Below are positions 1-12,418 of a stretch of 32,000 bases of DNA, piece after piece. How positions within the stretch are numbered: the first letter of the stretch is position 1; each line of letters begins with the position of its first letter. The notes under the pieces are model-generated. The model made no database searches. It saw only the letters and a list, made by a program, of their open reading frames with translations, and was not told where the DNA came from. This DNA is from Idiomarina loihiensis L2TR (lineage in GTDB: Bacteria > Pseudomonadota > Gammaproteobacteria > Enterobacterales > Alteromonadaceae). The position numbers and the translations under genes are program-made. The DNA is taken from NCBI RefSeq assembly GCF_000008465.1, contig NC_006512.1, positions 2,700,001 through 2,732,000 on the forward strand, read 5' to 3'.

Positions 1-80
1 GCAAAAATCTGGCTGCTAAGATCATCGGTTTTCAAGTCTTTAGGGATGACAAACTTCAACGTAAAGTCATATTCATTCAT
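1..80 (-). CDS. truncated hypothetical protein (5' end only; the rest lies left of the window)
   Basis: The minus strand reads AAGGAG-N9-ATG AAT GAA TAT GAC TTT... (MNEYDFTLKFVIPKDLKTDDLSSQIF) and stays open to the window edge. An in-frame ATG at 89 abuts the SD directly and is a less likely start. No family can be assigned from 26 residues. Confidence 0.4.
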   Translation of the reverse strand, partial: MNEYDFTLKFVIPKDLKTDDLSSQIF

Positions 81-114
81 TGTCGTCATCTCCTTTAATC
101 ATCTCAGTAACAGA

Positions 115-143
115 AGAATAGAGCTCAACCCTATGGTTGTCAA
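115..143 (-). promoter_or_regulatory. predicted sigma70 promoter for the truncated leftward gene (TTGACA-17-TATTCT)
   Basis: The minus strand reads TTGACA (143..138), a 17-nt spacer, then TATTCT (120..115). This lies ~20 nt upstream of the AAGGAG SD at 95..90. The -35 lies inside the 24-bp palindrome. Confidence 0.4.
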
Positions 144-155
144 TTGACAACCATA
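132..155. promoter_or_regulatory. perfect 24-bp palindrome TATGGTTGTCAA|TTGACAACCATA, a candidate operator
   Basis: I read this directly: 132-143 is the exact reverse complement of 144-155. It contains TTGACA on both strands and lies between the divergent genes ending at 80 (-) and starting at 272 (+). Confidence 0.5.
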
Positions 156-271
156 AGTTTAATGGCACACCTCTTGCTGTTTCTTATCCAAAAGCACCGT
201 TAACGCATAAATAATGCGCTAAACAGGCAAGCTTTTGCCACCCGGCAGGCAACTTTTGGTATGGAGGAATC

Positions 272-940
272 ATGAACATTAACTCATTAATCAACAGCGT
301 AAGCCAGTCAACACCTGCAATGACTAAGAGTGAAACGAATCAAGAACCACTTGATAACAAGGCTGAACAGAAAAAAACACAAGAAGAGAAAGAGACATTA
401 ATAGACAAAGCTTATCGCAGCATGCTGCTGAACCGCATGGGTGTTGATACCGAAAAGCTCGAAGAAATTGAGCAGAAAATAGAAGAGCTGGAAAGTAAAG
501 AAAACCTGAACAAAGAAGAAAAGGACAAACTTGAAAGCTTAATGTCAGCCCGAGACCAGCTTTTTGAAGATGCTATGCGCCGCCAGGCTGAAGGCGGCAA
601 TGACGGTAAACAACCCGTTAGTCCTGGCGATATTCAAAAAATTATAACCGAGGACTTTAACCCACGGGACATATCACCTAACGACATGAGTAAGCTTGCA
701 AATCAGTTGTTTGAGGCCGGTGCAATTAGCTCGCAGCAACGCAATCGCATAGATTTTCACACGGCTAAAACCGATCAGCAAAACACCTTAATGTCAGAAC
801 CAGAGCAAATTGACCCGGATGAACCCATGAACTTTGTGAAGCATTGGCAGGATCGCGTCAAAGCCAACGAACACTTCGACGCGTCACCACAGGAAAAGGC
901 GTTAGCCCAGGGTGTATTGGACGTTTTGCGGCAAGTCTAA
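272..940 (+). CDS. hypothetical acidic protein, predicted coiled-coil N-terminal half
   Basis: 222-aa ORF with the SD GGAGG 5 nt upstream of the ATG. A Glu/Lys-rich heptad-like stretch (EKLEEIEQKIEELESKENLNKEEKDKLESL) is present. I see no signal peptide and no motif I recognise. The stop overlaps the stop of the convergent yafO-like gene by 3-4 nt. Confidence 0.6.
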   Translation: MNINSLINSVSQSTPAMTKSETNQEPLDNKAEQKKTQEEKETLIDKAYRSMLLNRMGVDTEKLEEIEQKIEELESKENLNKEEKDKLESLMSARDQLFEDAMRRQAEGGNDGKQPVSPGDIQKIITEDFNPRDISPNDMSKLANQLFEAGAISSQQRNRIDFHTAKTDQQNTLMSEPEQIDPDEPMNFVKHWQDRVKANEHFDASPQEKALAQGVLDVLRQV

Positions 941-1335
941 TACCGATTACGGAATTTTTCTGCCATTATTCCTAGGGGTAGCATAACCGCACTGCTCCAT
1001 GCTTTGTTGTGAGCAGGAGGATCAAGAATTATCATAAGCAAATAGCAGTTGGGCGTCATAGCTGCCGGACAATAGACTAAGTGCGTATCACTTTTCTTAG
1101 CAAACTGAATGCAATGCAAAGGCCAAGGCTCATCGGGATCTTGTAGATGCAAATGCATTACTTCATTGTCACGAAGAACCGGGAAGGTATCTGGATGATC
1201 ATAGCGTTCATCGCGCCCGAACAGGTCAGGCACGCCCTCGCCACTTTTATAGCGCTTAAAGTCTTTTACTAATGCATCCAGTTCAATATCAGTTAATTGC
1301 TGACGAATCTGTTTGCTCTTAAAAACCCGAATCAC
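937..1335 (-). CDS. yafO: YafO-family type II toxin (ribosome-dependent mRNA interferase)
   Basis: MIRVFKSKQIRQQLT...DLFGRDERY...THLVYC...GIMAEKFRNRY aligns along its full length with my recollection of E. coli YafO (MRVFKTKLIRLQLT...DIFGRDALY...AHLVYC...GKMAEAFRMRF). The GTG start overlaps the stop of the upstream antitoxin gene (GTGA). Confidence 0.85.
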   Translation of the reverse strand: MIRVFKSKQIRQQLTDIELDALVKDFKRYKSGEGVPDLFGRDERYDHPDTFPVLRDNEVMHLHLQDPDEPWPLHCIQFAKKSDTHLVYCPAAMTPNCYLLMIILDPPAHNKAWSSAVMLPLGIMAEKFRNRY

Positions 1336-1625
1336 TCTTCAAAGTCATCCAGATCAGACTTTTTCGCTTCAGCTAAAAGCTTCTCTGCTTCGGCACTAAT
1401 AGCCTTTAGCCGCGCTGTCGTCGGCCTAAAAAGGGACTCTACTTTAGGGTTACAGGCTTCCAACTGGCGTACCATAGCTTCAAATAACTCAGCACCTACC
1501 ATGTAACCAGCGGTTTTATTGTGGGAAAGTACCGCCACAGGCTCAGCTTCAAAATACTGGCAGGGGTGTTTGCGCACGTCACTGGCAGATACCGTTTTTT
1601 CAGCCAATATAGTTTGTGTGTTCAT
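1332..1625 (-). CDS. yafN: YafN-like antitoxin (Phd/YefM superfamily)
   Basis: TILAEKTVSASDVRKHPCQYFEAEPVAVLSHNKTAGYMV...RPTTARL...DDFEE matches recalled E. coli YafN (ILAEKSVNITELRKNPAKYFIDQPVAVLSNNRPAGYLL...RPSAARL...NDFKE). The SD GAGG lies 6 nt before the ATG. A 4-bp overlap couples it to yafO. Confidence 0.85.
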   Translation of the reverse strand: MNTQTILAEKTVSASDVRKHPCQYFEAEPVAVLSHNKTAGYMVGAELFEAMVRQLEACNPKVESLFRPTTARLKAISAEAEKLLAEAKKSDLDDFEE

Positions 1626-1659
1626 ACTCTACCTCACCACTTTTACATCTATTGACTAA

Positions 1660-1689
1660 ATTATAGCCATAAAACATACGCAATTACAA
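1660..1689 (-). promoter_or_regulatory. predicted promoter of the yafNO pair (TTGTAA-18-TATAAT)
   Basis: The minus strand reads TTGTAA (1689..1684), an 18-nt spacer, then a perfect TATAAT (1665..1660), ~35 nt upstream of the yafN ATG. Confidence 0.4.
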
Positions 1690-1718
1690 ACAAAATAATA
1701 TACATAAATATGTACAAT

Positions 1719-2861
1719 TTAATTTTCTGTCTGTTTTTTCAAATCACTATTCTGCACTTCAATTTCACTGATGTACTTTGACTGATGCTCGCGTGCGAAC
1801 TGCACAGCTTTATTCGAGGCCTTTAGCGCACTCTCGTTGTTGTCATTCATTGCATAAACCGTTGCCAGGCTGTCCCATAAAACTTCGGACTTGTCGAATA
1901 CCTCAACGCCTTTCTCCAGAATAGTCTGCCCCCAGTCAACTTGGCCTTCATAGGCAGCCTTTAAGCCATACACGTTGTATTGCTGCACCGACATAGGAAA
2001 GTCGTAACCCACCGTCTTTTCGTAATCAGCATAAAACGCCTGCAACTGCTCCAGCGACTTAATTTCGATGTTTGGCACCGCGTTAAACCCACGAAAAACG
2101 GATTTAAGCCCTTCGACATTACCAATTAGTGCCGTGCTGTCATGGGTTTCGTTGGGGAACTGCTTTAACTCCCAGTTAAAAGCCGATTCCGGCTTCGCTT
2201 CCAGCACCTTCAATAAACGCTCATAGCTCTCGGCCATTTCATTAGGCTCATTCGCCATACTGACAAACCAACGTACCGCCGGCTTTTCTGCCTCTTGCTC
2301 TGCCGCTTTTATGTCATTGATAAGCGCAAAGTCATCCCACCAAAGGCTTGGGCTGACCGATATTGCGGCATTGATAAAATCCGAATGGTGAGTCGCCAGA
2401 TAACTGGTGTAGAGCCCCGACAGCGAGTGCCCAGTAACCACCGTATAAGGCGACACTCTGTACTTTTTCTGCAACGCTGGCATAAGCTCATCTTGCAAAA
2501 ACTGGGTGTACTGCTCAGCACCGCCAGAACGGTCAGCGTAGGCTTCCATTTTTGTGTGAGTAAAACGCTTTAAGCGGTTCTTCGCACTGACCCCGACAAC
2601 AATCATTTCCGGCACAATAGAAAACGTACTTAAAAAATTAACGTTACCCGCTATGTGCTCAAACTGCGTTGAGCCGTCCATAACCAGCAGCACCGGATAC
2701 TGAAAGCTGTCTGAATGCTCATAGCTTTCCGGCAACGCAACCCGCGCCGTTATCCCTTCATCAAGGAGCTTAGACTTCATAGTGAAGATTTCGGACGCGT
2801 GCGCGATTGTTGCAAAAATACAGGACAAAAACAGAGCTACAACTTTTAAATACAGGTGCAT
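1719..2861 (-). CDS. secreted alpha/beta-hydrolase, putative esterase family, with a helical C-terminal tail
   Basis: Signal peptide MHLYLKVVALFLSCIFATIAHA/SE. YPVLLVMDG and the nucleophile elbow GHSLSG are typical of the 'putative esterase' (enterochelin-esterase-like) fold. The last ~100 aa look TPR-like. Confidence 0.7.
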   Translation of the reverse strand: MHLYLKVVALFLSCIFATIAHASEIFTMKSKLLDEGITARVALPESYEHSDSFQYPVLLVMDGSTQFEHIAGNVNFLSTFSIVPEMIVVGVSAKNRLKRFTHTKMEAYADRSGGAEQYTQFLQDELMPALQKKYRVSPYTVVTGHSLSGLYTSYLATHHSDFINAAISVSPSLWWDDFALINDIKAAEQEAEKPAVRWFVSMANEPNEMAESYERLLKVLEAKPESAFNWELKQFPNETHDSTALIGNVEGLKSVFRGFNAVPNIEIKSLEQLQAFYADYEKTVGYDFPMSVQQYNVYGLKAAYEGQVDWGQTILEKGVEVFDKSEVLWDSLATVYAMNDNNESALKASNKAVQFAREHQSKYISEIEVQNSDLKKQTEN

Positions 2862-2991
2862 GGAGCCTTTAAGTTATTGGTTTGCAGTTACATGATAAAA
2901 CTATTCAGAGGCCACTACAATTGAAGATAATGCTCTACGGCGTTAGGTTAACTATGCTTAATCATTAAACATAACACAGAGCTACTATTAA

Positions 2992-3507
2992 ATGGCAGAT
3001 GTTCATAATACCGAACAACGGCGTAAAAATATGCGAGCCATAAAGTCCAGGGATACGTCGATTGAAATTCAGGTTCGAAGAATACTTTGGCACGCGGGTT
3101 ATCGATACCGCCTGAATGTGAAAGCTCTCCCCGGAAAGCCCGATATCTACCTACCTAAATACCGCGCCGTAATTCAAATCAACGGGTGCCTTTGGCATGG
3201 GCATAACTGTCCACAATTCGTGCTTCCAAAAACGCGAACAGAGTTTTGGAGAAATAAGATTAAAGATAACGTGAGACGCGACTTGAAAAGTGTCGCTGCT
3301 TTACATGATAAAGGGCTGCGGCTGCTTGTAATTTGGGAGTGCGCTCTTCAGGGTAAAGCACGTTTAGATAACCGCTACACTTATAACCTTTTGAATAGGT
3401 GGCTTTCATCGACAGAACTGTTGGCTAATATTGATAAACAAGGCCTTTCTTCGACGACACTATACGAGTTTAAGTCTCAAATAAATCCGTCTTTAACAGA
3501 ATCCTAG
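2992..3507 (+). CDS. vsr: very-short-patch repair endonuclease Vsr (T:G mismatch endonuclease)
   Basis: MADVHNTEQRRKNMRAIKSRDTSIE, GCLWHGHNC, KTRTEFW and LLVIWECAL match recalled E. coli Vsr (MADVHDKATRSKNMRAIATRDTAIE, GCFWHHHHC, ATRTEFW, VLIVWECAL). Confidence 0.93.
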   Translation: MADVHNTEQRRKNMRAIKSRDTSIEIQVRRILWHAGYRYRLNVKALPGKPDIYLPKYRAVIQINGCLWHGHNCPQFVLPKTRTEFWRNKIKDNVRRDLKSVAALHDKGLRLLVIWECALQGKARLDNRYTYNLLNRWLSSTELLANIDKQGLSSTTLYEFKSQINPSLTES

Positions 3508-3750
3508 TTAGCTGTTTATATTACTTTTTTAGCAGCCGAGCAGGCAACTCTTAATGCAGTGGCGTTCCAATGATCTTATCAATTAGCCCTAAGAAGAAGT
3601 TTATCCGAGAATTCGAAAAATAATTTTAGAAAATGGCTAAAAGGGAGGAGACATCCCCATGATATATACTCAACGAAACTGTGAATAGTTCTCCTCAATG
3701 TATAAGAACCTCCTTTGACCTAAAAGCTAATTTTTAAAGCTAAAATACGG

Positions 3751-3779
3751 TTGACTAACGCACTCAATGAGTGCATTAT
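3751..3779 (+). promoter_or_regulatory. predicted promoter of the methyltransferase gene (TTGACT-17-CATTAT)
   Basis: TTGACT at 3751-3756, a 17-nt spacer, CATTAT at 3774-3779, ~25 nt upstream of the ATG at 3805. The TTG used as the ORF start in the track is this -35 hexamer. Confidence 0.45.
3760..3774. promoter_or_regulatory. perfect 6-3-6 palindrome GCACTC-AAT-GAGTGC, a candidate operator for the methyltransferase HTH
   Basis: I read this directly. It lies entirely within the spacer and -10 edge of the predicted promoter. The architecture (15 bp, 6-3-6, AAT centre) resembles the operator recalled for M.SsoII (AGGACA-AAT-TGTCCT). Confidence 0.45.
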
Positions 3780-3804
3780 TCCGGTAGATCAAACTGGAAA
3801 TCAC

Positions 3805-5064
3805 ATGTCAAATATAGAACTTAAACAGCTTCGCGAACGACTTTGTCTGACTCAGTCGCAAGCAGCGTCGTTGGTTCACTCCAGCGTTCGTGCTTGGCAA
3901 CAATGGGAGTCAGGCGAGAGACAAATGCACCCAGCGATTCGGGAACTGTTCACTATCAAAACCAAAACATATCAGCGAGAGAGTCGAACTATGTCATTTG
4001 CCAAGCCAAGTGTTACTTTTAGGGATTTGAAAAAAAATTATCAAGAACTAGCCGAGTCGACTCATAGATCTGAACAGGCGAATGCAAAAGACTCCAGTAT
4101 AAAGTTTATCGATTTGTTTGCCGGTGTGGGCGGGATCAGGTTGGCTTTTGAAAAAGCTGGCGCAGCTTGTGTGTTTTCATCGGAAATAGATACGCATGCA
4201 CAGCTTACTTATTTTACTAATCATGGAACGGTTCCTTATGGTGATATTACCAAGATTGACGCTGACTCAATTCCTTCACATGATATCCTGTGTGCTGGCT
4301 TTCCATGCCAACCTTTTAGCCATATCGGCAGAAGGGAGGGATTTAAGCACCCTACTCAAGGAACTATGTTCCATGAAATTGTTAGGATTGCTGAGAAAAA
4401 GCGGCCAAGAGTTTTATTTCTAGAAAACGTGCCGGGAATTGTGAATCATGACAATGGGAATACTCTAAAAGTAATCCTCGACACGCTCACAGAGCTTGGG
4501 TATGAATGCAACCACACCATTCTGAATGCCAGTGATTTTGGAGTACCTCAGAATCGTAAACGATTTTACCTTGTGGCATTTGACGGTAAGGACTGCGGCT
4601 TTTCCTTCCCCCAACCACCAATGATAAAGGCAGATATCGGAACACTTTTGGAAAAAGGAGCTGAAGGCTATTCAATTTCTGAACACCTGCAGAAAACTTA
4701 CTTATTCAAAAAGGATGATGGCCGTCCGATTTTGATTGACAGAAATACGAAAGGCCCTATGAGGACATTGGTATCTAGTTACCATAAAATTCAGCGCCTA
4801 ACGGGTACATTCGTTAAAGATGGTGAAACAGGTATTCGTCTACTCACAGCGTACGAATGTAAAAAAGCCATGGGCTTTCCTGATGACTTCAAGTTCCCTG
4901 TCTCGCGTACTCAAATGTACAGACAGATGGGCAACTCCGTAGTTATTACAGTGATTGATGCTATTGCTGAAAAGATACTTGAGACCCTTTCTCATAAAAA
5001 GAGCCCTACGGAGAAAAAATCTGAACGCGACATGCCCGAATCTAATCTTGAGGTAGCGATATAG
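3805..5064 (+). CDS. DNA (cytosine-5)-methyltransferase, M.MspI-like (predicted CCGG), with an N-terminal XRE-type HTH
   Basis: Motif I FIDLFAGVGG, motif IV GFPCQPFS, motif VI FLENVPG, motif VIII QNRKRFYLV, motif X MGNSV. The N-terminal LKQLRERLCLTQSQAASLV...WQQWESGERQMHP forms an HTH. The variable region SISEHLQKTYLFKKDDG...HKIQRLTGTFVKDGETGIRLLT is nearly identical to my recollection of M.MspI. With the start at ATG 3805 the product is 419 aa (M.MspI is ~418 aa). Confidence 0.93.
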   Translation: MSNIELKQLRERLCLTQSQAASLVHSSVRAWQQWESGERQMHPAIRELFTIKTKTYQRESRTMSFAKPSVTFRDLKKNYQELAESTHRSEQANAKDSSIKFIDLFAGVGGIRLAFEKAGAACVFSSEIDTHAQLTYFTNHGTVPYGDITKIDADSIPSHDILCAGFPCQPFSHIGRREGFKHPTQGTMFHEIVRIAEKKRPRVLFLENVPGIVNHDNGNTLKVILDTLTELGYECNHTILNASDFGVPQNRKRFYLVAFDGKDCGFSFPQPPMIKADIGTLLEKGAEGYSISEHLQKTYLFKKDDGRPILIDRNTKGPMRTLVSSYHKIQRLTGTFVKDGETGIRLLTAYECKKAMGFPDDFKFPVSRTQMYRQMGNSVVITVIDAIAEKILETLSHKKSPTEKKSERDMPESNLEVAI

Positions 5065-6367
5065 GCATTTTGAGCTGAATTCTCTGGCCTCGACGCTTTG
5101 AGGGGTATGTCCAAGAAAAAGGCGCCCCTCTTCCTTTTCCTATAGCTGCTTTGAGCTCTTCAATGTAACTTTTAGCTGACTGCATTTTACACGCGCCAGA
5201 GTCAGCATTTCTCGTCAAAATAAAGTTGGCAAGTTGTATTTTCTCATCTATTAAATAATCAGCGTCATGTTGTCCCGTAACAGCCCACTGAATGATTTTT
5301 TCCATATAGGGGTTGAGTACTTCATCCGTATCTAAAACAAGCCCCTTTTCCGAGGTTAGAGAGTTAAACTCTTTCCACGAGCCCGCCTCCTGAAATATTT
5401 CTACTAGATTCCGAAAGTCACTATCATCGGGGGCAATTACCCTTACAAAGTCTTTAGCTTGATAATCGTGGCAGCTAACACGAGTTGCGATTGTATTCTT
5501 AACGCTAATATTCGCTATGTGAAATTCTTTAGGTGATAAATAGACTCTTAAGTGAATATCAGTTTTCGGGCTGCCACCATTCTTTAGTTTAGTAATTGTA
5601 TCTGTGGCTTCCAGTAGCTGAATGTGCTGCTTTTCTATTGGCAACTCAGAGACAACTGAATCTAAAACAGTATCATATTCAAAACATGCTTTCTCATTCG
5701 CCTGGTAAGCTGACAGATTATTTGGCTCATTAAGCTCTTCAACGAGGAATCGCTCGAATTTATTACCCGATTTACCATAATAACTGCCAGTTTTTTCCTC
5801 TACTTGAGCTAGTTCATCAGAAAAAGAACGTTGGTATAATGCTAGCGGCGGATGGAGTTCACTTTCGCCAGTTTCTTCAGCCTCATCCATGAGATCCTCG
5901 ACTTCAGAACAATAATTAGCGAAAAACTCATTCAGCTCTGAAAATGTTAACCAGTGAGTAGCTGGTGAGAAAAAGTAGCCATCCTGGACTTTTTTGCGTG
6001 TTGATATGAAAGTTGTATTTTCTTCTTCTCCATCTGGAAACAACAGGATTGAAGCTACGATATCGCCAGAAAATGAGGAGAACTGTTGAATTCCAAGAAA
6101 GTCGTAGAATGGGATTTTTGCTCGATCTGAGCGATAAGAATTACTGGCACGAATCAATATAAATTTGCTGTCTACTGTTTTAACAACAAAGTCACATTTA
6201 AACTGCTTATCGTAGCCATAGCCTTGATGTGAATGACTTACTTCAACCTCAAAACCGAGAATTAACTCATCCTTTTGTAAAGCTTCTAATAGCTCTCCAA
6301 CCTTATCCTTTACTTCTTTACCAGTCCGAGCTTTTTCGCCATTGCTTATTATTTGTGCGCTATCCAT
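5042..6367 (-). CDS. type II restriction endonuclease, MspI-like C-terminal catalytic core fused to an unrecognised N-terminal domain
   Basis: Residues ~190-441 contain KSGNKFERFLVEEL, NGGSPKTD-X19-K (ISVKNT), IIQWAVTG and GAPFSWTYPSKRRGQRIQLK. These are colinear with recalled R.MspI (LGKLYEKYILDIF, AGGSPKTD...NIKHS, FIRWCVTL, GLNWTYASGSKAKKMQFK; 262 aa). The SD AGGAGA lies 9 nt before the ATG. The gene converges on the MTase gene and overlaps it by 23 bp. Confidence 0.7.
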   Translation of the reverse strand: MDSAQIISNGEKARTGKEVKDKVGELLEALQKDELILGFEVEVSHSHQGYGYDKQFKCDFVVKTVDSKFILIRASNSYRSDRAKIPFYDFLGIQQFSSFSGDIVASILLFPDGEEENTTFISTRKKVQDGYFFSPATHWLTFSELNEFFANYCSEVEDLMDEAEETGESELHPPLALYQRSFSDELAQVEEKTGSYYGKSGNKFERFLVEELNEPNNLSAYQANEKACFEYDTVLDSVVSELPIEKQHIQLLEATDTITKLKNGGSPKTDIHLRVYLSPKEFHIANISVKNTIATRVSCHDYQAKDFVRVIAPDDSDFRNLVEIFQEAGSWKEFNSLTSEKGLVLDTDEVLNPYMEKIIQWAVTGQHDADYLIDEKIQLANFILTRNADSGACKMQSAKSYIEELKAAIGKGRGAPFSWTYPSKRRGQRIQLKMPISLPQD

Positions 6368-6752
6368 AATTCAATATCTCCTGATAAGTCGGCTAGCTAA
6401 TTTAATGCAGCTACCAGATACTCTAAAGTTACTCTTTCTATTGTGCTTCTTGGTATAAATAACTTGTCTCTTTTCAAGACTATCAGAGTTCTAAAGAAAG
6501 TATATCATCGACCATAAGATGCGATAGATTCGCCATACTTTCATCATTGCTTCTGACTTTTAAAATAAAAACGACTTAAAGCTTTTACCTTTCGAGCGTT
6601 AATTCGTTAGATAAGGTCGCGGGTATCTCCCATAGATAACGTGATGAGAAATACTGGCTAGCCAAACTAAATCAACCTCAGTTTTTACCCGATCAGCTTA
6701 CCGGCTTTGACTATGAGCACCTTCAGGTTCGTTATCTGAGCTGCCTTAAAGA

Positions 6753-8696
6753 CTAAATAACCTTTAATCCACTCCCCACCAAACTCAACCGCTCCTTAGC
6801 CCGCGTAATCCCCGTATACAGCAACTCCTTACTTAGCACGGGGCTGTCGTGGTCGGGCAACACCATAACGGTGTGTTTGAATTCAGAGCCCTGCGATTTA
6901 TGTACAGTCATGGCGTACACGGTTTCTATGTGGGTGAGACGGCTGGGTAATACCCAGCGCACGCCTTTATTTTCAGACTTGTTGGTCTGGTCGGGAAAGG
7001 CGACGCGCAGGTGGCCGTGTTCGGGGTCTTTAAAGGTTAGGCCAATGTCGCCGTTGTTCAGCTTCAGTCCGTAGTCGTTTTTGGTGACCATAACGGGACG
7101 ACCTTCGTACCAGGTGTTGGCGTTTACGCCGAGTATCTCGCCGACTTTTTGGTTAACGGCTTTTACGCCCCAGGGGCCTTCGCGCAGGGCGGTCAGGATT
7201 TGGAAGTTGCTTAGGTTTTGCAGGGCTTCCTGGGCGAGTTTGTTGATGTCCTCGGCGTTGGCGGTTTTAGTAACATTGCTGTTGGTGTCGGCATTGTTCC
7301 TGACGTGTAACGTCAGGCTACCCGAGGTCGTCAGGTTACGTTTAACCAAAGCTTCGAAGGCTGGATCGTCTAGGCTGCTGACTTCGTACAGGCTAACGGG
7401 GTAGTCTTCATCGGCGACTTTGGCTTTTTCCAGTTCCTGTTTTGTTGCGGCGTTGTCTTGTCGGTTAATGGCGTTAGCCAGGTCGGCAATAGGGCCGTGA
7501 AAACGGTAGCTTTTGCGGAATTTCACCACGTGTTGCAGGCGTTGCTCGCCATTGTTGTCTATTAACTCCGCGGGCAAAACAGGTGTGTCGGCAACGTGCT
7601 GTAACCACTGGGCGGTTTCTGTGTGGTAGTGGCCTTGGTCCGCGCCTTCACACAAATTGCCCAGCACTGCGCCGGCTTCTACGGAAGCGAGCTGATCTTT
7701 GTCACCAATAAGCACCAGCCGCGCGTTTTTGGGTGTGGCTTTTAGCAGCGCGGTCATCATTTCAATGTCTATCATTGAGGCTTCGTCGACTATCACAACG
7801 TCTGTGCGCAGTGGGTTGTCGGCGTGGTGTTTAAACGCGCGCGAGTTCGGTTTTACACCCAGCAGCCGGTGCAGCGTTTTACCTTCAGGTTTTATGGCGT
7901 CTAAGGCGTCTTTCAGGGTGGCGAGCTTTGCATCACCCCGCAGCCTATTCAGCTCGCTTTCTATGGACTCAGTGAGTCGCGCGGCGGCCTTACCGGTAGG
8001 CGCTGCCAACGATACGCGCAGCGGCGGTAGGCCGAGGAATAAAGTCTGATGCTGCAACGCAGTTAACAGGCGCACGACGGTGTAGGTTTTACCGGTACCG
8101 GGCCCGCCGGTTATGACGCTAAAGCGGTTGCGCACGGTGTTAGCGCAGGCCACGCGCTGCCAGTTAATCTCTTCGGCTTTGTCACCGTCAGGTTTATCAA
8201 ACAACTTGGCCAGCGTGCTTTTCAGTAAGTCGTCGTTGGTAACTGGCCGGTCGCTCATGCGCGCCTGTAAATCATTCTCTATAAAGGCTTCGTATTGCCA
8301 GTAACGACGCAAATACAGTTTGCCGTCACTTAACACCAGCGGCTGATTGCCTTTTCCGTCGACGTCTACGCAGTGACTTTGAATTAATGCCGCTTCAACA
8401 TCCGTACCAAACTGACGGAACAATTCGCTAGGATTAACGCAGTTCGGCGAATAGCGGTTTTCGGGCGGTAAATTCAGTACGCTTTCGGGTTCATTCTGCA
8501 GAGCCTTTATGTCAATACAGGTATGCCCGCGACCGGCTTCGTGCGAGGCACACAGGGCAGCCAGTAATACTTCACTGCGCGTTTCTCCGGCTTGCTGCAA
8601 AAACTCCACAAAGGCCAGGTCTATTGAGCGTATCCAGCCGGCATCACGCCACTCACGCAGCGCATCAAATAAGGTGTTTGAGGTTACTTCTGTCAT
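6753..8696 (-). CDS. recD: exodeoxyribonuclease V alpha subunit RecD
   Basis: Walker A ITGGPGTGKTYTV, Walker B VVIVDEASMID, C-terminal TVHKSQGSEF and YTGITRAK. The ATG overlaps the recB stop (ATGA at 8693-8696). Confidence 0.95.
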   Translation of the reverse strand: MTEVTSNTLFDALREWRDAGWIRSIDLAFVEFLQQAGETRSEVLLAALCASHEAGRGHTCIDIKALQNEPESVLNLPPENRYSPNCVNPSELFRQFGTDVEAALIQSHCVDVDGKGNQPLVLSDGKLYLRRYWQYEAFIENDLQARMSDRPVTNDDLLKSTLAKLFDKPDGDKAEEINWQRVACANTVRNRFSVITGGPGTGKTYTVVRLLTALQHQTLFLGLPPLRVSLAAPTGKAAARLTESIESELNRLRGDAKLATLKDALDAIKPEGKTLHRLLGVKPNSRAFKHHADNPLRTDVVIVDEASMIDIEMMTALLKATPKNARLVLIGDKDQLASVEAGAVLGNLCEGADQGHYHTETAQWLQHVADTPVLPAELIDNNGEQRLQHVVKFRKSYRFHGPIADLANAINRQDNAATKQELEKAKVADEDYPVSLYEVSSLDDPAFEALVKRNLTTSGSLTLHVRNNADTNSNVTKTANAEDINKLAQEALQNLSNFQILTALREGPWGVKAVNQKVGEILGVNANTWYEGRPVMVTKNDYGLKLNNGDIGLTFKDPEHGHLRVAFPDQTNKSENKGVRWVLPSRLTHIETVYAMTVHKSQGSEFKHTVMVLPDHDSPVLSKELLYTGITRAKERLSLVGSGLKVI

Positions 8697-11600
8697 ACCG
8701 GCTCCTTATCTGAAAGGTTCTTACCCGCAAAAAGTGTGTCCAGCTGCTCTATTAACTTCCGTGGCGGCCGGTCACAAAATGCCCCGCCGGTCTCCGCCCG
8801 GTGCCCACGCAAAAACAGATATACGGCACCACCTACATGGGTGTCATAGTCGTAGTCACTGCCTAGCCGCGCTTTTAGCAAGCGATGCAGTGCCAGGGTG
8901 TAAATGACGTATTGCAGGTCATAACGGCTGTGCAGAATTTTCTCGCGCATGGCTTGTTCGGTGTAAGCGTGGTCGTCTTCGCCCAGCCAGTTGGACTTAT
9001 AATCTGCCACGTAGTATTTGCCGTTGTGCTCAAACACCAAGTCGATAAAGCCTTTGAGCATGCCGTTCAGCACATTGGGTTCCAGCGCCGGGCGTTCATG
9101 CCCCGGCAGAATATGTTCGCGAACCAGAGCATCCAGTCTTTGTGCGTTAACTTCACTGGCACCAAACCAGAATTCCGGCTCAGCTTTGTATTGCTCCAGT
9201 GCGCTTAAGCTCACGCTTTCACCACTGTCATTAATGGGGAATTCGTTGTGCAAATAGGCGTCCAGCCAGTGCTCCAGGCTGTTTTGGTGTTCCTGCCAAT
9301 AAGGGCTGACACAAAAGCCTTGTACCAGCTCAGCGCGCTCGGCAGCGTCACCCGCTATTTGCGCAAAGCCGATATTGGCCGACTCTTCCAGTAGGTTATG
9401 CAGGAACGTACCCGGCCCCGCGCCTTTGGGTAAGTGATGAATGCTGTCCGGACTTGGCTCCGCGGCACTGGCGACTTCCGCTTCGTCATCGTCGCGCTCG
9501 TCCAACAGGTTCATTTCGTCTGGCGACTGCGGTGCCTGCACGCTTTTTGTCACGGCACCTTCGTACTTCAGCGCGCTGTAACTGGCTACCCACCAGCGTT
9601 CCAGCTTGCGGTCTGCGGGCATGCTGCGTGGTGTCAGCTTCGGCGTTGTTTGTTCCTGCTCCAGCGCACGAACTAAAGGCTCGTCGTCTTCCAACCGAGT
9701 TAATTGTGTGTGCGGTGCCTGTTGCCAACGCTCGTTGACTTCGGTGTAAAGCTCATCGGTTAGTGACTCACCGCCGTTCAACAAATAAAACAACGGGTTG
9801 TTGCGATGCTCTTTCACAGCTTCCAGCGCAATAAAAGTGGCGTATTGCGCGCGGGTCACCGCCACGTACATTTTGCGTAAGTCTTCCGCGAGGATCTCAT
9901 TACTTAAACGCTGCTTATTGTCGTCGTCTTTTGACCACAATACCTGTAGCTCACCGTTTTCATCGTGGTACACCGCCGGTGGTTTTATCCGGTAGGCTTC
10001 GGCCTGGGTGTACGCCACAAAGGGCATGAACACCAGCGGGTACTGCAGGCCTTTCGACTTATGAATGGTGATGATTTTTATCAGTTCGTCGTCGCTTTCT
10101 AAGCGCAGTTGCTGCTCGTCGCTCTGGGTACGGCTGTTGCTGCCAAAGCCGTGGCGTTCGTTCACCTGCTCGGCAAAATGGTTCACCAGCGCCGGAATGC
10201 CGTCCAGTACCAGGCTCTGCTGTTGCAGCAGCTCGGCAATGTGCAGCACGTCGGACAGTTGCCGTTCGCCATGAATACGGTCTTCAAGTAGCTTCGCGGG
10301 CACCTGATGGTCATGCAGCAGGCTGTGCAACATGGCCAGTACCCCCTGTCGCTGCCACTGGTCGTGATAACTTAAAAACTGCTCTACCCGCTGTTCCCAC
10401 TCGCGTTCGTGGCTGTGAATATGCTCCAGCTCGCTCAGCGGCAAGCCGAGTATCTGAGTAGCCAGAGCACTGCGTATCAGCGACGGGTCGCGCGGCTCGG
10501 CGCAGGCACTCACCAGCGCCAGCAAATCTTTCGCTACGCGCTGGGCAAATACCGATTCTCTGTCCGATAAATAAACGCTTTTCAGCCCGCGATCGCTCAG
10601 CGCCTTTTTAATGGCATTGGCTTCGTTAAAGTTGTTTACCAGCACCGCAATGTCACTGGTTTTGACACGCTGTTCCAGCTTATCGTCACCGTCGTAATAC
10701 CCCGCCTGCGGGTCATTAAGCAGGGAGGCTATCAAGTTAGCGTGGTGGTTTGCGGCAGCGCGGAAAAACGTGTCTTTATTGCGCTTTTCTTCACCGGACA
10801 CCGACCACAGCAGCGCCGGCGCGGTTTTTAAATTACTGGATAACAGGCAATGCTTGAAAGTGCGCTTCAGCCCATTTGCACCCACCGGGTTAAAGGGCAG
10901 CTGGTTTTCTGCTTCGGTTTTAAACAGAAAAGCACCGCGCGGCAGCTCTTCAGCGCGCTCAAACAGCGCATTAACGCCATCCACCATGGCCTGCGACGAG
11001 CGAAAGTTCCGCGCCAGATTATAATGCCGGCCTTCGGTATCGCGCCGGGCTTTTAAATAGGTATAAATATCGGCGTTACGGAAGCTGTAAATGGCCTGTT
11101 TGGGGTCACCAATCAGGAAAATACCGGTACCCGGGTGCGGGTCCGCCAGGTTATAAATGCGGTTAAAAATCTCGTACTGCACCGGGTCGGTGTCCTGAAA
11201 CTCGTCCACCATAGCCACCGGATACTGCTTGCGAATAGCCGCAGCTAAGGCTTCACCGCTGGGTCCTTTCAACGCGTCACGTAAACGCGTCAGCATGTCG
11301 TCGTGGCCCATTTCGGCGCGCTGGTTTTGCAACTCGGCAAAGCGGTTGCTCACCCAGAAAGCGGCGTGTTGTTTTACTTTAGCCAACTCTTCCTGCTGCT
11401 GTACTTTGCTGCGCTTAATACGTTCCTGCAGCTCGCCTAACACCGCCCAGCTTTGGGGCATATCGCCAAGTTTGGCATCGGCGAACTTCTGTAACTCGTC
11501 GGTGCTAATGTTTTTCCAGTTTGCCGCGGTGGCTTCGGGCTCAACCAGGTCAGGGTCGCCGCACCAGTCCGCAAATTTCTGAAACTGCTTAAGTTTGGTT

Positions 11601-12418
11601 GCCGCGCCTTTAGCTTGCGAGGTTTTATCAACCAATTCCTGCACAATAGGAGCAACTTCCTGCTTTATAGCAACCATTCGTTGCTGATGGGCGCTTTCAG
11701 CTTCGTTCAGCAAGCTGTGCAAGTCACCATCAATCGGTGCCTGTCCGCTTTTACTTAAGCTGTAAGTGAGCCCTAACAAGGTTTCCGGTGACTTAAAGTC
11801 TTCCAGCAACCGGGCACTGAGTTCGGCATCGGCCGGATAAATAAAGCGGCGGAAGTAGTCTCCGGCGGCCTGCAAACGCAGCTCTTCGTTGTCGGTTTCA
11901 ACGTCCTGACTGAACAAACTGCCGCTGGCAAAAGCGTGCTCTTTTAGCATGGACTGGCACCAACCATGAATGGTTTTCACTGCCGCTTCGTCCATTGACT
12001 GCGAGGCTAAATCCAACAGCCGCGCCAGATGCATCAGGTTTTGCCCCTGCGCTGCACAGTCTTCCCGCAGACTGGCTAAGAAGGGGTCACCTTCTACGGC
12101 TTCCGGATCACGAAAATAGGCAGCAGCTTCCGCCAATCGCGCGCGAATACGATCACTCAGCTCTTCGGTGGCAGCTTTGGTAAAGGTCATGACCAGAATG
12201 TTTTTCGGCACCAGTTCGCGGTCAAACGCGGTTTCCTCTGCACCATTATGCGAACCGTGACCGATAACCAAACGCACATAAAGCGCAGCAATAGTGTAGG
12301 TTTTTCCGGTACCGGCACTGGCCTCAATTAAGCGACTGCTGTTCAGCGGAAAGTCGAGCGGATTATCTAACTTATGCCCTAACGTATGCCCTGAGTTATG
12401 TGACGACAACTGGCTCAT
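8693..12418 (-). CDS. recB: exodeoxyribonuclease V beta subunit RecB (helicase-nuclease)
   Basis: 1241 aa. UvrD-type helicase motifs EASAGTGKTYTI and VDEFQDTDP. C-terminal RecB nuclease motif GFIDLVFEHNGKYYVADYKSN. 4-bp overlaps with both recC and recD. Confidence 0.97.
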   Translation of the reverse strand: MSQLSSHNSGHTLGHKLDNPLDFPLNSSRLIEASAGTGKTYTIAALYVRLVIGHGSHNGAEETAFDRELVPKNILVMTFTKAATEELSDRIRARLAEAAAYFRDPEAVEGDPFLASLREDCAAQGQNLMHLARLLDLASQSMDEAAVKTIHGWCQSMLKEHAFASGSLFSQDVETDNEELRLQAAGDYFRRFIYPADAELSARLLEDFKSPETLLGLTYSLSKSGQAPIDGDLHSLLNEAESAHQQRMVAIKQEVAPIVQELVDKTSQAKGAATKLKQFQKFADWCGDPDLVEPEATAANWKNISTDELQKFADAKLGDMPQSWAVLGELQERIKRSKVQQQEELAKVKQHAAFWVSNRFAELQNQRAEMGHDDMLTRLRDALKGPSGEALAAAIRKQYPVAMVDEFQDTDPVQYEIFNRIYNLADPHPGTGIFLIGDPKQAIYSFRNADIYTYLKARRDTEGRHYNLARNFRSSQAMVDGVNALFERAEELPRGAFLFKTEAENQLPFNPVGANGLKRTFKHCLLSSNLKTAPALLWSVSGEEKRNKDTFFRAAANHHANLIASLLNDPQAGYYDGDDKLEQRVKTSDIAVLVNNFNEANAIKKALSDRGLKSVYLSDRESVFAQRVAKDLLALVSACAEPRDPSLIRSALATQILGLPLSELEHIHSHEREWEQRVEQFLSYHDQWQRQGVLAMLHSLLHDHQVPAKLLEDRIHGERQLSDVLHIAELLQQQSLVLDGIPALVNHFAEQVNERHGFGSNSRTQSDEQQLRLESDDELIKIITIHKSKGLQYPLVFMPFVAYTQAEAYRIKPPAVYHDENGELQVLWSKDDDNKQRLSNEILAEDLRKMYVAVTRAQYATFIALEAVKEHRNNPLFYLLNGGESLTDELYTEVNERWQQAPHTQLTRLEDDEPLVRALEQEQTTPKLTPRSMPADRKLERWWVASYSALKYEGAVTKSVQAPQSPDEMNLLDERDDDEAEVASAAEPSPDSIHHLPKGAGPGTFLHNLLEESANIGFAQIAGDAAERAELVQGFCVSPYWQEHQNSLEHWLDAYLHNEFPINDSGESVSLSALEQYKAEPEFWFGASEVNAQRLDALVREHILPGHERPALEPNVLNGMLKGFIDLVFEHNGKYYVADYKSNWLGEDDHAYTEQAMREKILHSRYDLQYVIYTLALHRLLKARLGSDYDYDTHVGGAVYLFLRGHRAETGGAFCDRPPRKLIEQLDTLFAGKNLSDKEPV

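Follow-up and report, generated by a model that had tools for sequence, protein, structure and literature searches.

The 32,000 nucleotides of Idiomarina loihiensis L2TR analysed here (contig NC_006512.1, positions 2,700,001 to 2,732,000; called the window below, with coordinates counted from its first letter) contain a restriction endonuclease gene at 5042..6367 on the minus strand. The open reading frame (ORF) encodes 441 amino acids (aa). It was assigned to the long form of the MspI family on the basis of the ORF list, Pfam family PF09208 and full-length homologues, which share 25-86% identity with it. The sequence AGGAGA (6377..6382, minus strand), read as a Shine-Dalgarno element, precedes the start codon ATG (6365-6367) with a 9-nt spacer. 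The protein has three parts, all encoded on the minus strand. Residues 1-162 (5882..6367) form an N-terminal domain, which AlphaFold2, Foldseek and profile searches describe as a PD-(D/E)xK-type fold that is probably non-catalytic. Residues 163-193 (5789..5881) are a flexible acidic linker with an isoelectric point (pI) of 4.05, recognised by low model confidence and composition. Residues 194-441 and the stop codon (5042..5788) make up an MspI-like catalytic and recognition core, delimited by Pfam, phmmer against PDB entry 1sa3, and Foldseek.

The MspI-like core and the linker

The similarity of the C-terminal half to R.MspI (PDB 1sa3 and 1yfi, 262 aa) is unambiguous. The Pfam model Endonuc-MspI (PF09208) matches residues 182-434 with its positions 4-259 of 259 (E 2e-113), scoring 378.6 bits against a gathering cutoff of 25.6. 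In a phmmer comparison, residues 195-433 align with residues 25-261 of 1sa3 (E 1e-10), so that the C-terminal 250 aa of the enzyme match R.MspI over its whole length. A Foldseek search with the AlphaFold model of the full-length protein returned 1sa3_A as the best match (E 6.9e-15, TMt 0.75, 260 columns), followed by the HinP1I structures 2fkc and 1ynm. The core is thus predicted to adopt the MspI/HinP1I-type three-dimensional fold.

A preliminary description of the stretch, made from its letters alone, had proposed an MspI-like core behind an N-terminal addition of about 170-185 residues and an acidic linker, and its observations on the core hold. The GGSPKTD motif, which is conserved in R.MspI, lies at residues 264-270 as described, about 178 residues precede the core according to Pfam and the 1sa3 alignment, and the acidic linker sequence EVEDLMDEAEETGESE is found at residues 153-168. 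The suspected replacement of MspI Asn117 by serine was also borne out, since S288-V-K290 stands opposite N117-I-K119 in the 1sa3 alignment. Together with D270, which pairs with MspI D99, these residues make up the D...x-K catalytic motif common to both enzymes (D270-x17-S288-V-K290, 5498..5560, minus strand). None of D270, S288 and K290 varies among 38 homologues. The long-form family differs from R.MspI both in the invariant serine and in the possession of an N-terminal domain. By homology, the core would recognise and cut CCGG with this one active site, because the characterised family members MspI and BsuFI both cut CCGG.

In the full-length model, two domains with a predicted local distance difference test score (pLDDT) above 90 are joined by a low-confidence segment. 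This segment, residues 160-200 with pLDDT values of 48-71, is the sole poorly predicted part of the model, and its length differs among homologues. The predicted template modelling score (pTM) is 0.60 for the full-length protein, compared with 0.84 for the N-terminal domain alone, and the two domains therefore have no fixed predicted orientation.

The region upstream of the core is a genuine coding extension. It is conserved across phyla and folds confidently by itself, and the N-terminal part is 74.5% identical to its counterpart in Paraperlucidibaca, compared with 66% for the C-terminal part. The domain is thus as conserved as the catalytic core, which points to functional constraint.

A predicted nuclease fold with a putative base-reading motif and a degenerate active site

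The N-terminal domain of about 160 aa was correctly anticipated to be a folded alpha/beta unit: modelled alone with AlphaFold2, it reaches a pLDDT of 90.3 and a pTM of 0.84. The predicted order of secondary structure elements (helix, three strands, helix, strand, helix, strand, helix) is that of a PD-(D/E)xK nuclease core. Foldseek searches of the PDB with this model retrieved the nuclease domains of Can2/Card1, PspGI, NucS/EndoMS, XisH, SgrAI and BamHI. The match to PspGI (probability 1.00) has the highest TMq, 0.63, and PfoI appears when the full-length model is used as the query. The best fold matches among restriction enzymes, PspGI, SgrAI and PfoI, all belong to the CCGG family.

Sequence comparisons are much less informative. 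The Pfam scan of the domain gave only a sub-threshold DpnII match (E 0.005), and scans of 112 N-terminal domains gave sub-threshold noise, except for DpnII (in at most 4 members, E ~0.004) and a single match to RE_BsaWI. NCBIfam contains no model that matches the domain. Profiles built from alignments of 35 and 77 sequences found no real match among PDB sequences; the apparent matches to designed aq_1966 fusions are spurious helical alignments and were rejected. Short-peptide searches with the motif region described below did not find any chain of the CCGG family. The domain is therefore without a match in Pfam or among PDB sequences, and its identity appears to be undescribed.

The preliminary description saw no nameable motif in the domain and so missed its most conserved element, S-x-R-x-D-R-x-K. 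In the window enzyme, this motif reads S77-Y-R79-S-D81-R82-A-K84 and lies just after strand 3 (6116..6139, minus strand). Among 212 N-terminal domains, R82 and G16 are invariant, and D81 (98%), R79 (94%), Q55 (94%), S77 (93%), K12 (90%) and N9 (88%) are nearly so. In enzymes of the CCGG family, an R-(D/E)R motif that follows the catalytic lysine of strand 3 reads each CC:GG half-site, and the active site is permuted to PD...K-x12-13-E (PMC4652773, PMC5389614).

Comparison with NgoMIV, for which residues 184-203 were checked in PDB entry 1fiu, suggests that the two motifs correspond. The NgoMIV stretch I184-S-C-K187-W-T-I-R191-S-D-R194-A-Q-N-A-R-S-E201 aligns with I72-R-A-S75-N-S-Y-R79-S-D-R82-A-K-I-P-F-Y-D89 of the N-terminal domain. 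In this register, NgoMIV T189, R191, S192, D193, R194 and A195 would be equivalent to S77, R79, S80, D81, R82 and A83, and E201 to D89, and the catalytic K187 falls on S75. The R79-S-D81-R82 segment, identical to R191-S-D-R194 of NgoMIV, begins five residues beyond the predicted strand 69-74. The putative R-(D/E)R motif thus follows the strand-3 catalytic position by four residues. About 10% of the domains do not have the middle residue and contain a contiguous R-D-R or R-E-R. The same variation distinguishes NgoMIV, Bse634I and SgrAI from BsaWI (PMC4652773). One of the members with a contiguous motif is the protein with the sub-threshold RE_BsaWI match (E 0.019), which extends over strand 3, the motif, the following helix and strand 4.

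The domain appears to share several traits with the CCGG family (NgoMIV, Cfr10I/Bse634I, SgrAI, BsaWI, AgeI, PspGI, Ecl18kI, EcoRII-C and PfoI). Its predicted fold is of the PD-(D/E)xK type, strand 3 is followed by an [ST]-hydrophobic-R-x-D-R sequence that aligns in register with NgoMIV 189-195, and the last arginine is followed, seven positions on, by an acidic residue. In contrast to these enzymes, it is much smaller (about 160 aa, compared with 260-340), has serine or threonine in place of the catalytic lysine, does not conserve the aspartate of the PD motif, and has no significant sequence-profile match to the family. It is also fused to an unrelated nuclease that carries out the catalysis. 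MspI represents the EcoRV-like branch, whereas the NgoMIV-type enzymes belong to the EcoRI-like branch (PMC4081073).

The residues expected for catalysis have largely been lost. Position 75, equivalent to the catalytic lysine, is serine or threonine in 210 of the 212 sequences (T 57%, S 40%) and never lysine. Position 59 in strand 2 is D in 35%, N in 26% and P in 25% of the domains, and it co-varies with position 73, D or N occurring together with R or K, and P with an aromatic residue (F/Y/H). This pattern points to the packing of neighbouring strands rather than to metal binding. Of the permuted active site, only the last acidic residue, D89, is kept (in 80% of the domains), and helix 1 contains no conserved acidic residue. 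Since the permuted arrangement PD...K-x12-13-(E/D) is absent, the N-terminal domain is, judged by its residues, not an active member of the CCGG family. A subgroup of 16 of the 212 sequences (for example P0073, 403 aa) has D59, K73 and E87 with a K-x13-E spacing.

Distribution of the architecture and genomic context

The preliminary description regarded the fusion as a new architectural variant of a CCGG enzyme. The census shows otherwise: the combination of N-terminal domain and MspI core is the dominant form among the relatives. A search with the whole protein found 88 relatives, nearly all of 400-450 aa, some of which (in Pseudidiomarina, Flavobacteriaceae and Latilactobacillus) carry the NCBI name 'MspI family type II restriction endonuclease'. 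A profile of the N-terminal domain only, run against 1.84 billion cluster representatives, retrieved 241 clusters at E <= 0.001, and in almost all of them the domain is found at the N-terminus of proteins of 385-460 aa. When 232 collected proteins were scored with local hidden Markov models for each half, 187 from several phyla contained both domains, 42, mostly short fragments, contained the N-terminal domain only, and three contained the C-terminal domain only.

With one genome taken per species, the census located 33 loci, which belong to Gammaproteobacteria, Bacteroidota, Campylobacterota, Bacillota and Actinomycetota. The fusion is present in a single ORF at 30 of these loci, and one locus is N-terminally truncated. 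The other two, both from Saprospiraceae, encode the core alone (236-258 aa). In these metagenome-assembled genomes (L024:4968-5741 and L033:4992-5699), the core-only gene adjoins the same type of methyltransferase, and there is no remnant of the N-terminal domain in any frame. They are in effect natural N-terminal deletions of the long form.

The long form is also catalogued. In PADLOC, both halves of the enzyme are matched by PDLC03449, a model of 399 positions derived from REBASE, and the first 149 positions of this model match the N-terminal domain of another protein. Long-form proteins combine the N-terminal domain with an MspI core in a single ORF, about 390-460 aa long, beside a C5-methyltransferase. 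Having all of these features, the window enzyme is an ordinary member of a widespread MspI/BsuFI family, and its architecture is not new. The identity to Firmicute-type members is low (about 25-29%), and the linker of the window enzyme is longer than theirs and acidic.

The family probably includes a characterised enzyme. R.BsuFI from Bacillus subtilis, which recognises CCGG, resembles the long-form proteins in having a serine, Ser254, at the position of MspI Asn117 (PMC7559349, which cites Xu et al. 2005). By this numbering, BsuFI would have about 137 additional residues at its N-terminus. The same extension is seen in relatives from Bacillaceae, which are 390-395 aa long and have their S-x-K at positions 247-255. 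BsuFI itself has 395 aa. Judged from residue numbering and this length, it probably carries the same N-terminal domain.

The N-terminal domain also occurs as a separate protein. Five complete ORFs of 147-158 aa (L001:468-938, L006:414-878, L007:1570-2016, L008:548-991 and L044:2419-2895) encode stand-alone homologues, each beside a C5-methyltransferase gene. These five have flanking genes, and the possibility that they are contig-end fragments was rejected for them, whereas many of the remaining N-only matches are probably fragments. In three of the five contexts, the domain adjoins a protein of about 560 aa with the arrangement Mrr_cat-DEAD/ResIII-Helicase_C. A fourth helicase of this type is found near L002:4001-4939, which encodes a 312-aa protein with the N-terminal domain followed by a C-terminal region without assignment; the gene follows those for a GHKL-type (HATPase_c_3) ATPase and the helicase. 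PADLOC did not recognise any system at the contexts of the stand-alone domain. A non-catalytic small protein that keeps the base-reading motif and is encoded together with a methyltransferase and a nuclease-helicase would most simply be a target-recognition subunit, which makes it more likely that the fused domain reads DNA too. In these contexts, the small protein may be the specificity component of an uncharacterised ATP-dependent restriction-modification (R-M) arrangement. An attempt to derive a shared CCGG specificity from the methyltransferase of a stand-alone homologue found no support, as that enzyme belongs to a different subfamily.

Some homologues come from unusual surroundings. The 102-aa protein P0001, on a 41.8-kb NCBI/JGI contig, is 86% identical to the window enzyme in its first 70 residues and then continues with unrelated sequence to a stop codon, as if the endonuclease gene of a related genome had been inactivated by a frameshift. 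In an 897-kb record (L042, CP062975.1), the gene at 8001-8600 encodes a 199-aa homologue of the domain amid many very short ORFs without Pfam matches, a region that may use a different genetic code or be heavily pseudogenised. The genome that encodes P0185 contains many tiny unannotated ORFs.

In the window, the endonuclease gene converges with a C5 cytosine methyltransferase gene (3751..5064, plus strand; Pfam DNA_methylase, E 2e-94), and the two overlap by 23 bp (5042-5064). The methyltransferase probably starts at the ATG at 3805 and not at the TTG chosen by the ORF finder, because alignments with homologues begin at residue 19. Residues 19-73 form an Xre-type helix-turn-helix (HTH) domain (Pfam HTH_31, Aca2_YdiL), which matches a 65-aa protein annotated as 'transcriptional regulator' in the PDB (7xi5, E 4e-13). 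The match suggests that the R-M genes are self-regulated without a separate C protein. A C5-methyltransferase adjoins the endonuclease at 32 of the 33 loci, L027 on a 2.9-kb contig being the one that shows none. At 24 of the 33 loci, spread over several phyla, it is about 50-80% identical to the methyltransferase of the window.

A gene for a Vsr very-short-patch repair endonuclease, the usual companion of C5-methyltransferases, is located at 2992..3507 on the plus strand (Pfam Vsr, E 6e-30). Further away, there are minus-strand genes for a YafO toxin (937-1335), a Phd/YefM-type antitoxin (1332-1625) and a putative esterase (1719-2861). The recD and recB genes lie downstream on the other side of the R-M cassette. 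The GC content is 36-46% over the first 6.7 kb of the window (1-6700), compared with 53-57% in recD and recB (6750-12400). The R-M cassette thus occupies an acquired low-GC island beside recBCD.

Possible roles of the N-terminal domain

We consider it about an even chance (roughly 0.5) that the N-terminal domain is a catalytically dead, DNA-reading effector or dimerisation module of a long-form MspI-family enzyme. What the analysis shows is a two-domain architecture, a predicted nuclease fold, a conserved motif, missing catalytic residues and a domain that also exists by itself. That this domain binds DNA, prefers CC:GG and acts as an effector or dimeriser is inferred. The preliminary description had offered three guesses for the domain. 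Its second nuclease-like module fits the fold, and its effector or second-site DNA binder is the likeliest role; the third, a methylation reader, is taken up below.

In such an enzyme, the MspI-like core would be the cutter, acting with its single active site on CCGG. The N-terminal domain, tethered by the flexible acidic linker, would bind a CC:GG-containing site through R79, D81 and R82. Because each R-(D/E)R motif reads one half-site only, two N-terminal domains would probably pair on a CCGG site, so that a dimer would form on the DNA. A precedent exists in AgeI, the monomers of which pair on their DNA site (PMC5389614). The pairing could recruit, pair or allosterically license the cores, or it could hold the enzyme at a second site. 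The outcome would be two-site or dimer-dependent cleavage, similar to that of type IIE/IIF enzymes.

By joining a catalytic domain to a separate effector domain that binds DNA but has no catalytic function, the proposed arrangement would be analogous to that of Sau3AI, EcoRII and NaeI. In the window enzyme, the separate and probably non-catalytic domain is seen in the same chain, and DNA binding is suggested by its motif. The effector domain of EcoRII has a different, B3-like fold, and not the nuclease fold predicted here. Sau3AI is closer in this respect, as it combines a catalytic MutH-like domain with a non-catalytic MutH-like effector domain (bioRxiv 10.64898/2026.04.21.719898), and its effector is thus itself a degenerate copy of a nuclease fold. 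However, the two domains of Sau3AI are MutH-like duplicates, whereas those of the window enzyme come from different nuclease lineages.

Several points weigh against this interpretation. The top Foldseek match of the domain is Can2, which is not a restriction enzyme, with an E-value of only about 1e-3, and none of the sequence-profile methods links the domain to CCGG-family entries in Pfam or the PDB at significant E-values. The equivalence of R79, D81 and R82 with NgoMIV R191, D193 and R194 is suggested by sequence register and predicted secondary structure. The CCGG specificity of the enzyme itself is taken from family membership. The methyltransferase beside one stand-alone homologue is only 24% identical to that of the window, and some members of the domain family may therefore read sites other than CCGG. 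The D59/K73/E87 subgroup might retain a catalytic triad. Finally, the domain has an acidic pI of 4.8. Few DNA-binding proteins are acidic, although restriction enzymes often are.

The strongest competitor, to which we give clearly less weight, is a module for protein-protein contacts without sequence-specific reading, which would hold two enzyme molecules together or bind partners such as the methyltransferase. Two single-site MspI cores could thereby cut both strands together. An MspI-type monomer, with its one active site, has to cut one strand after the other (PMC5389614), so that a dimeriser would be useful to it. The acidity of the domain and the large helicase-nucleases next to the stand-alone homologues, as possible complex partners, are in line with this view. 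However, the invariant or nearly invariant residues (N9, K12, Q55, S77, R79, D81, R82 and K84) are polar or charged and do not resemble a hydrophobic interface, and the motif falls in register with one that is known to read bases.

It is improbable that the N-terminal domain is a second active nuclease, so that each chain would have two catalytic domains, each nicking one strand. The nuclease fold, the presence of D59 and D89 in the window enzyme and their near invariance in its closest clade are compatible with such a function, as is the existence of the D59/K73/E87 subgroup. But position 75 is never lysine, about half of the family has N or P instead of D59 while the R-x-D-R motif stays invariant, and helix 1 offers no conserved acidic residue. 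Moreover, the natural core-only forms and MspI work without the domain.

We regard as slightly less probable still that the domain senses the modification state of the DNA, such as hemi- or fully methylated CCGG, and tunes restriction accordingly. This idea, already raised in the preliminary description, is in keeping with the C5 methylation used by the system and with the likeness of the partner helicases of the stand-alone homologues to type IV methyl-directed enzymes in PADLOC. Searches of Pfam, the PDB and Foldseek, however, revealed no likeness to known 5-methylcytosine readers (SRA, MBD, Mrr/McrB-N). The aspartate of the R-(D/E)R motif forms hydrogen bonds with cytosine N4 amino groups (PMC5389614), and nothing in the present results suggests that the motif reads C5 methylation.

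That the extension is an annotation artefact, with translation really starting downstream, for example at Met159, can practically be dismissed: GAGGA lies 4 nt 5' of this codon and a 282-aa gene call (P0002) begins at its equivalent, but that call derives from a 1,056-bp contig, the methionine is not conserved in homologues, the domain equals or exceeds the core in its conservation across phyla and folds with a pLDDT of 90, and a strong Shine-Dalgarno sequence precedes the first ATG. The Met159 codon and its GAGGA (5891-5905, minus strand) lie within the linker, and a start there would yield an MspI-sized protein. The site is probably an accident because the methionine is not conserved.

A broader version of the effector interpretation is less likely than not. 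The N-terminal domain would represent an undescribed family of pseudo-nuclease readers, descended from CCGG enzymes of the NgoMIV/PspGI type, which gave up catalysis but retained the R-(D/E)R reader of the half-site. As a transferable specificity module, it would have two uses. In the first, it would be fused to MspI-type cores, giving chains with two unrelated CCGG readers and two-site, type IIE/IIF-like behaviour. In the second use, it would be a free subunit of 150 aa that provides target recognition for Mrr-nuclease/SF2-helicase motors paired with C5-methyltransferases. The latter would constitute an uncharacterised ATP-dependent type of R-M system. The stand-alone relatives point to a helicase-nuclease R-M arrangement that has not been studied.

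If the effector interpretation holds, the domain shows how a nuclease fold can be reused to read sequence, and as it lacks a Pfam model, it could be described as a new domain family. In their dependence on site pairs or in star activity, long-form enzymes might offer useful differences from MspI. MspI is the textbook monomer in which a single active site deals with a palindromic target. Should the majority of its relatives, BsuFI probably among them, have a second, tethered CC:GG reader, the common form of the enzyme may be controlled by two sites or by dimerisation on DNA, and MspI would be the stripped-down exception of its family.

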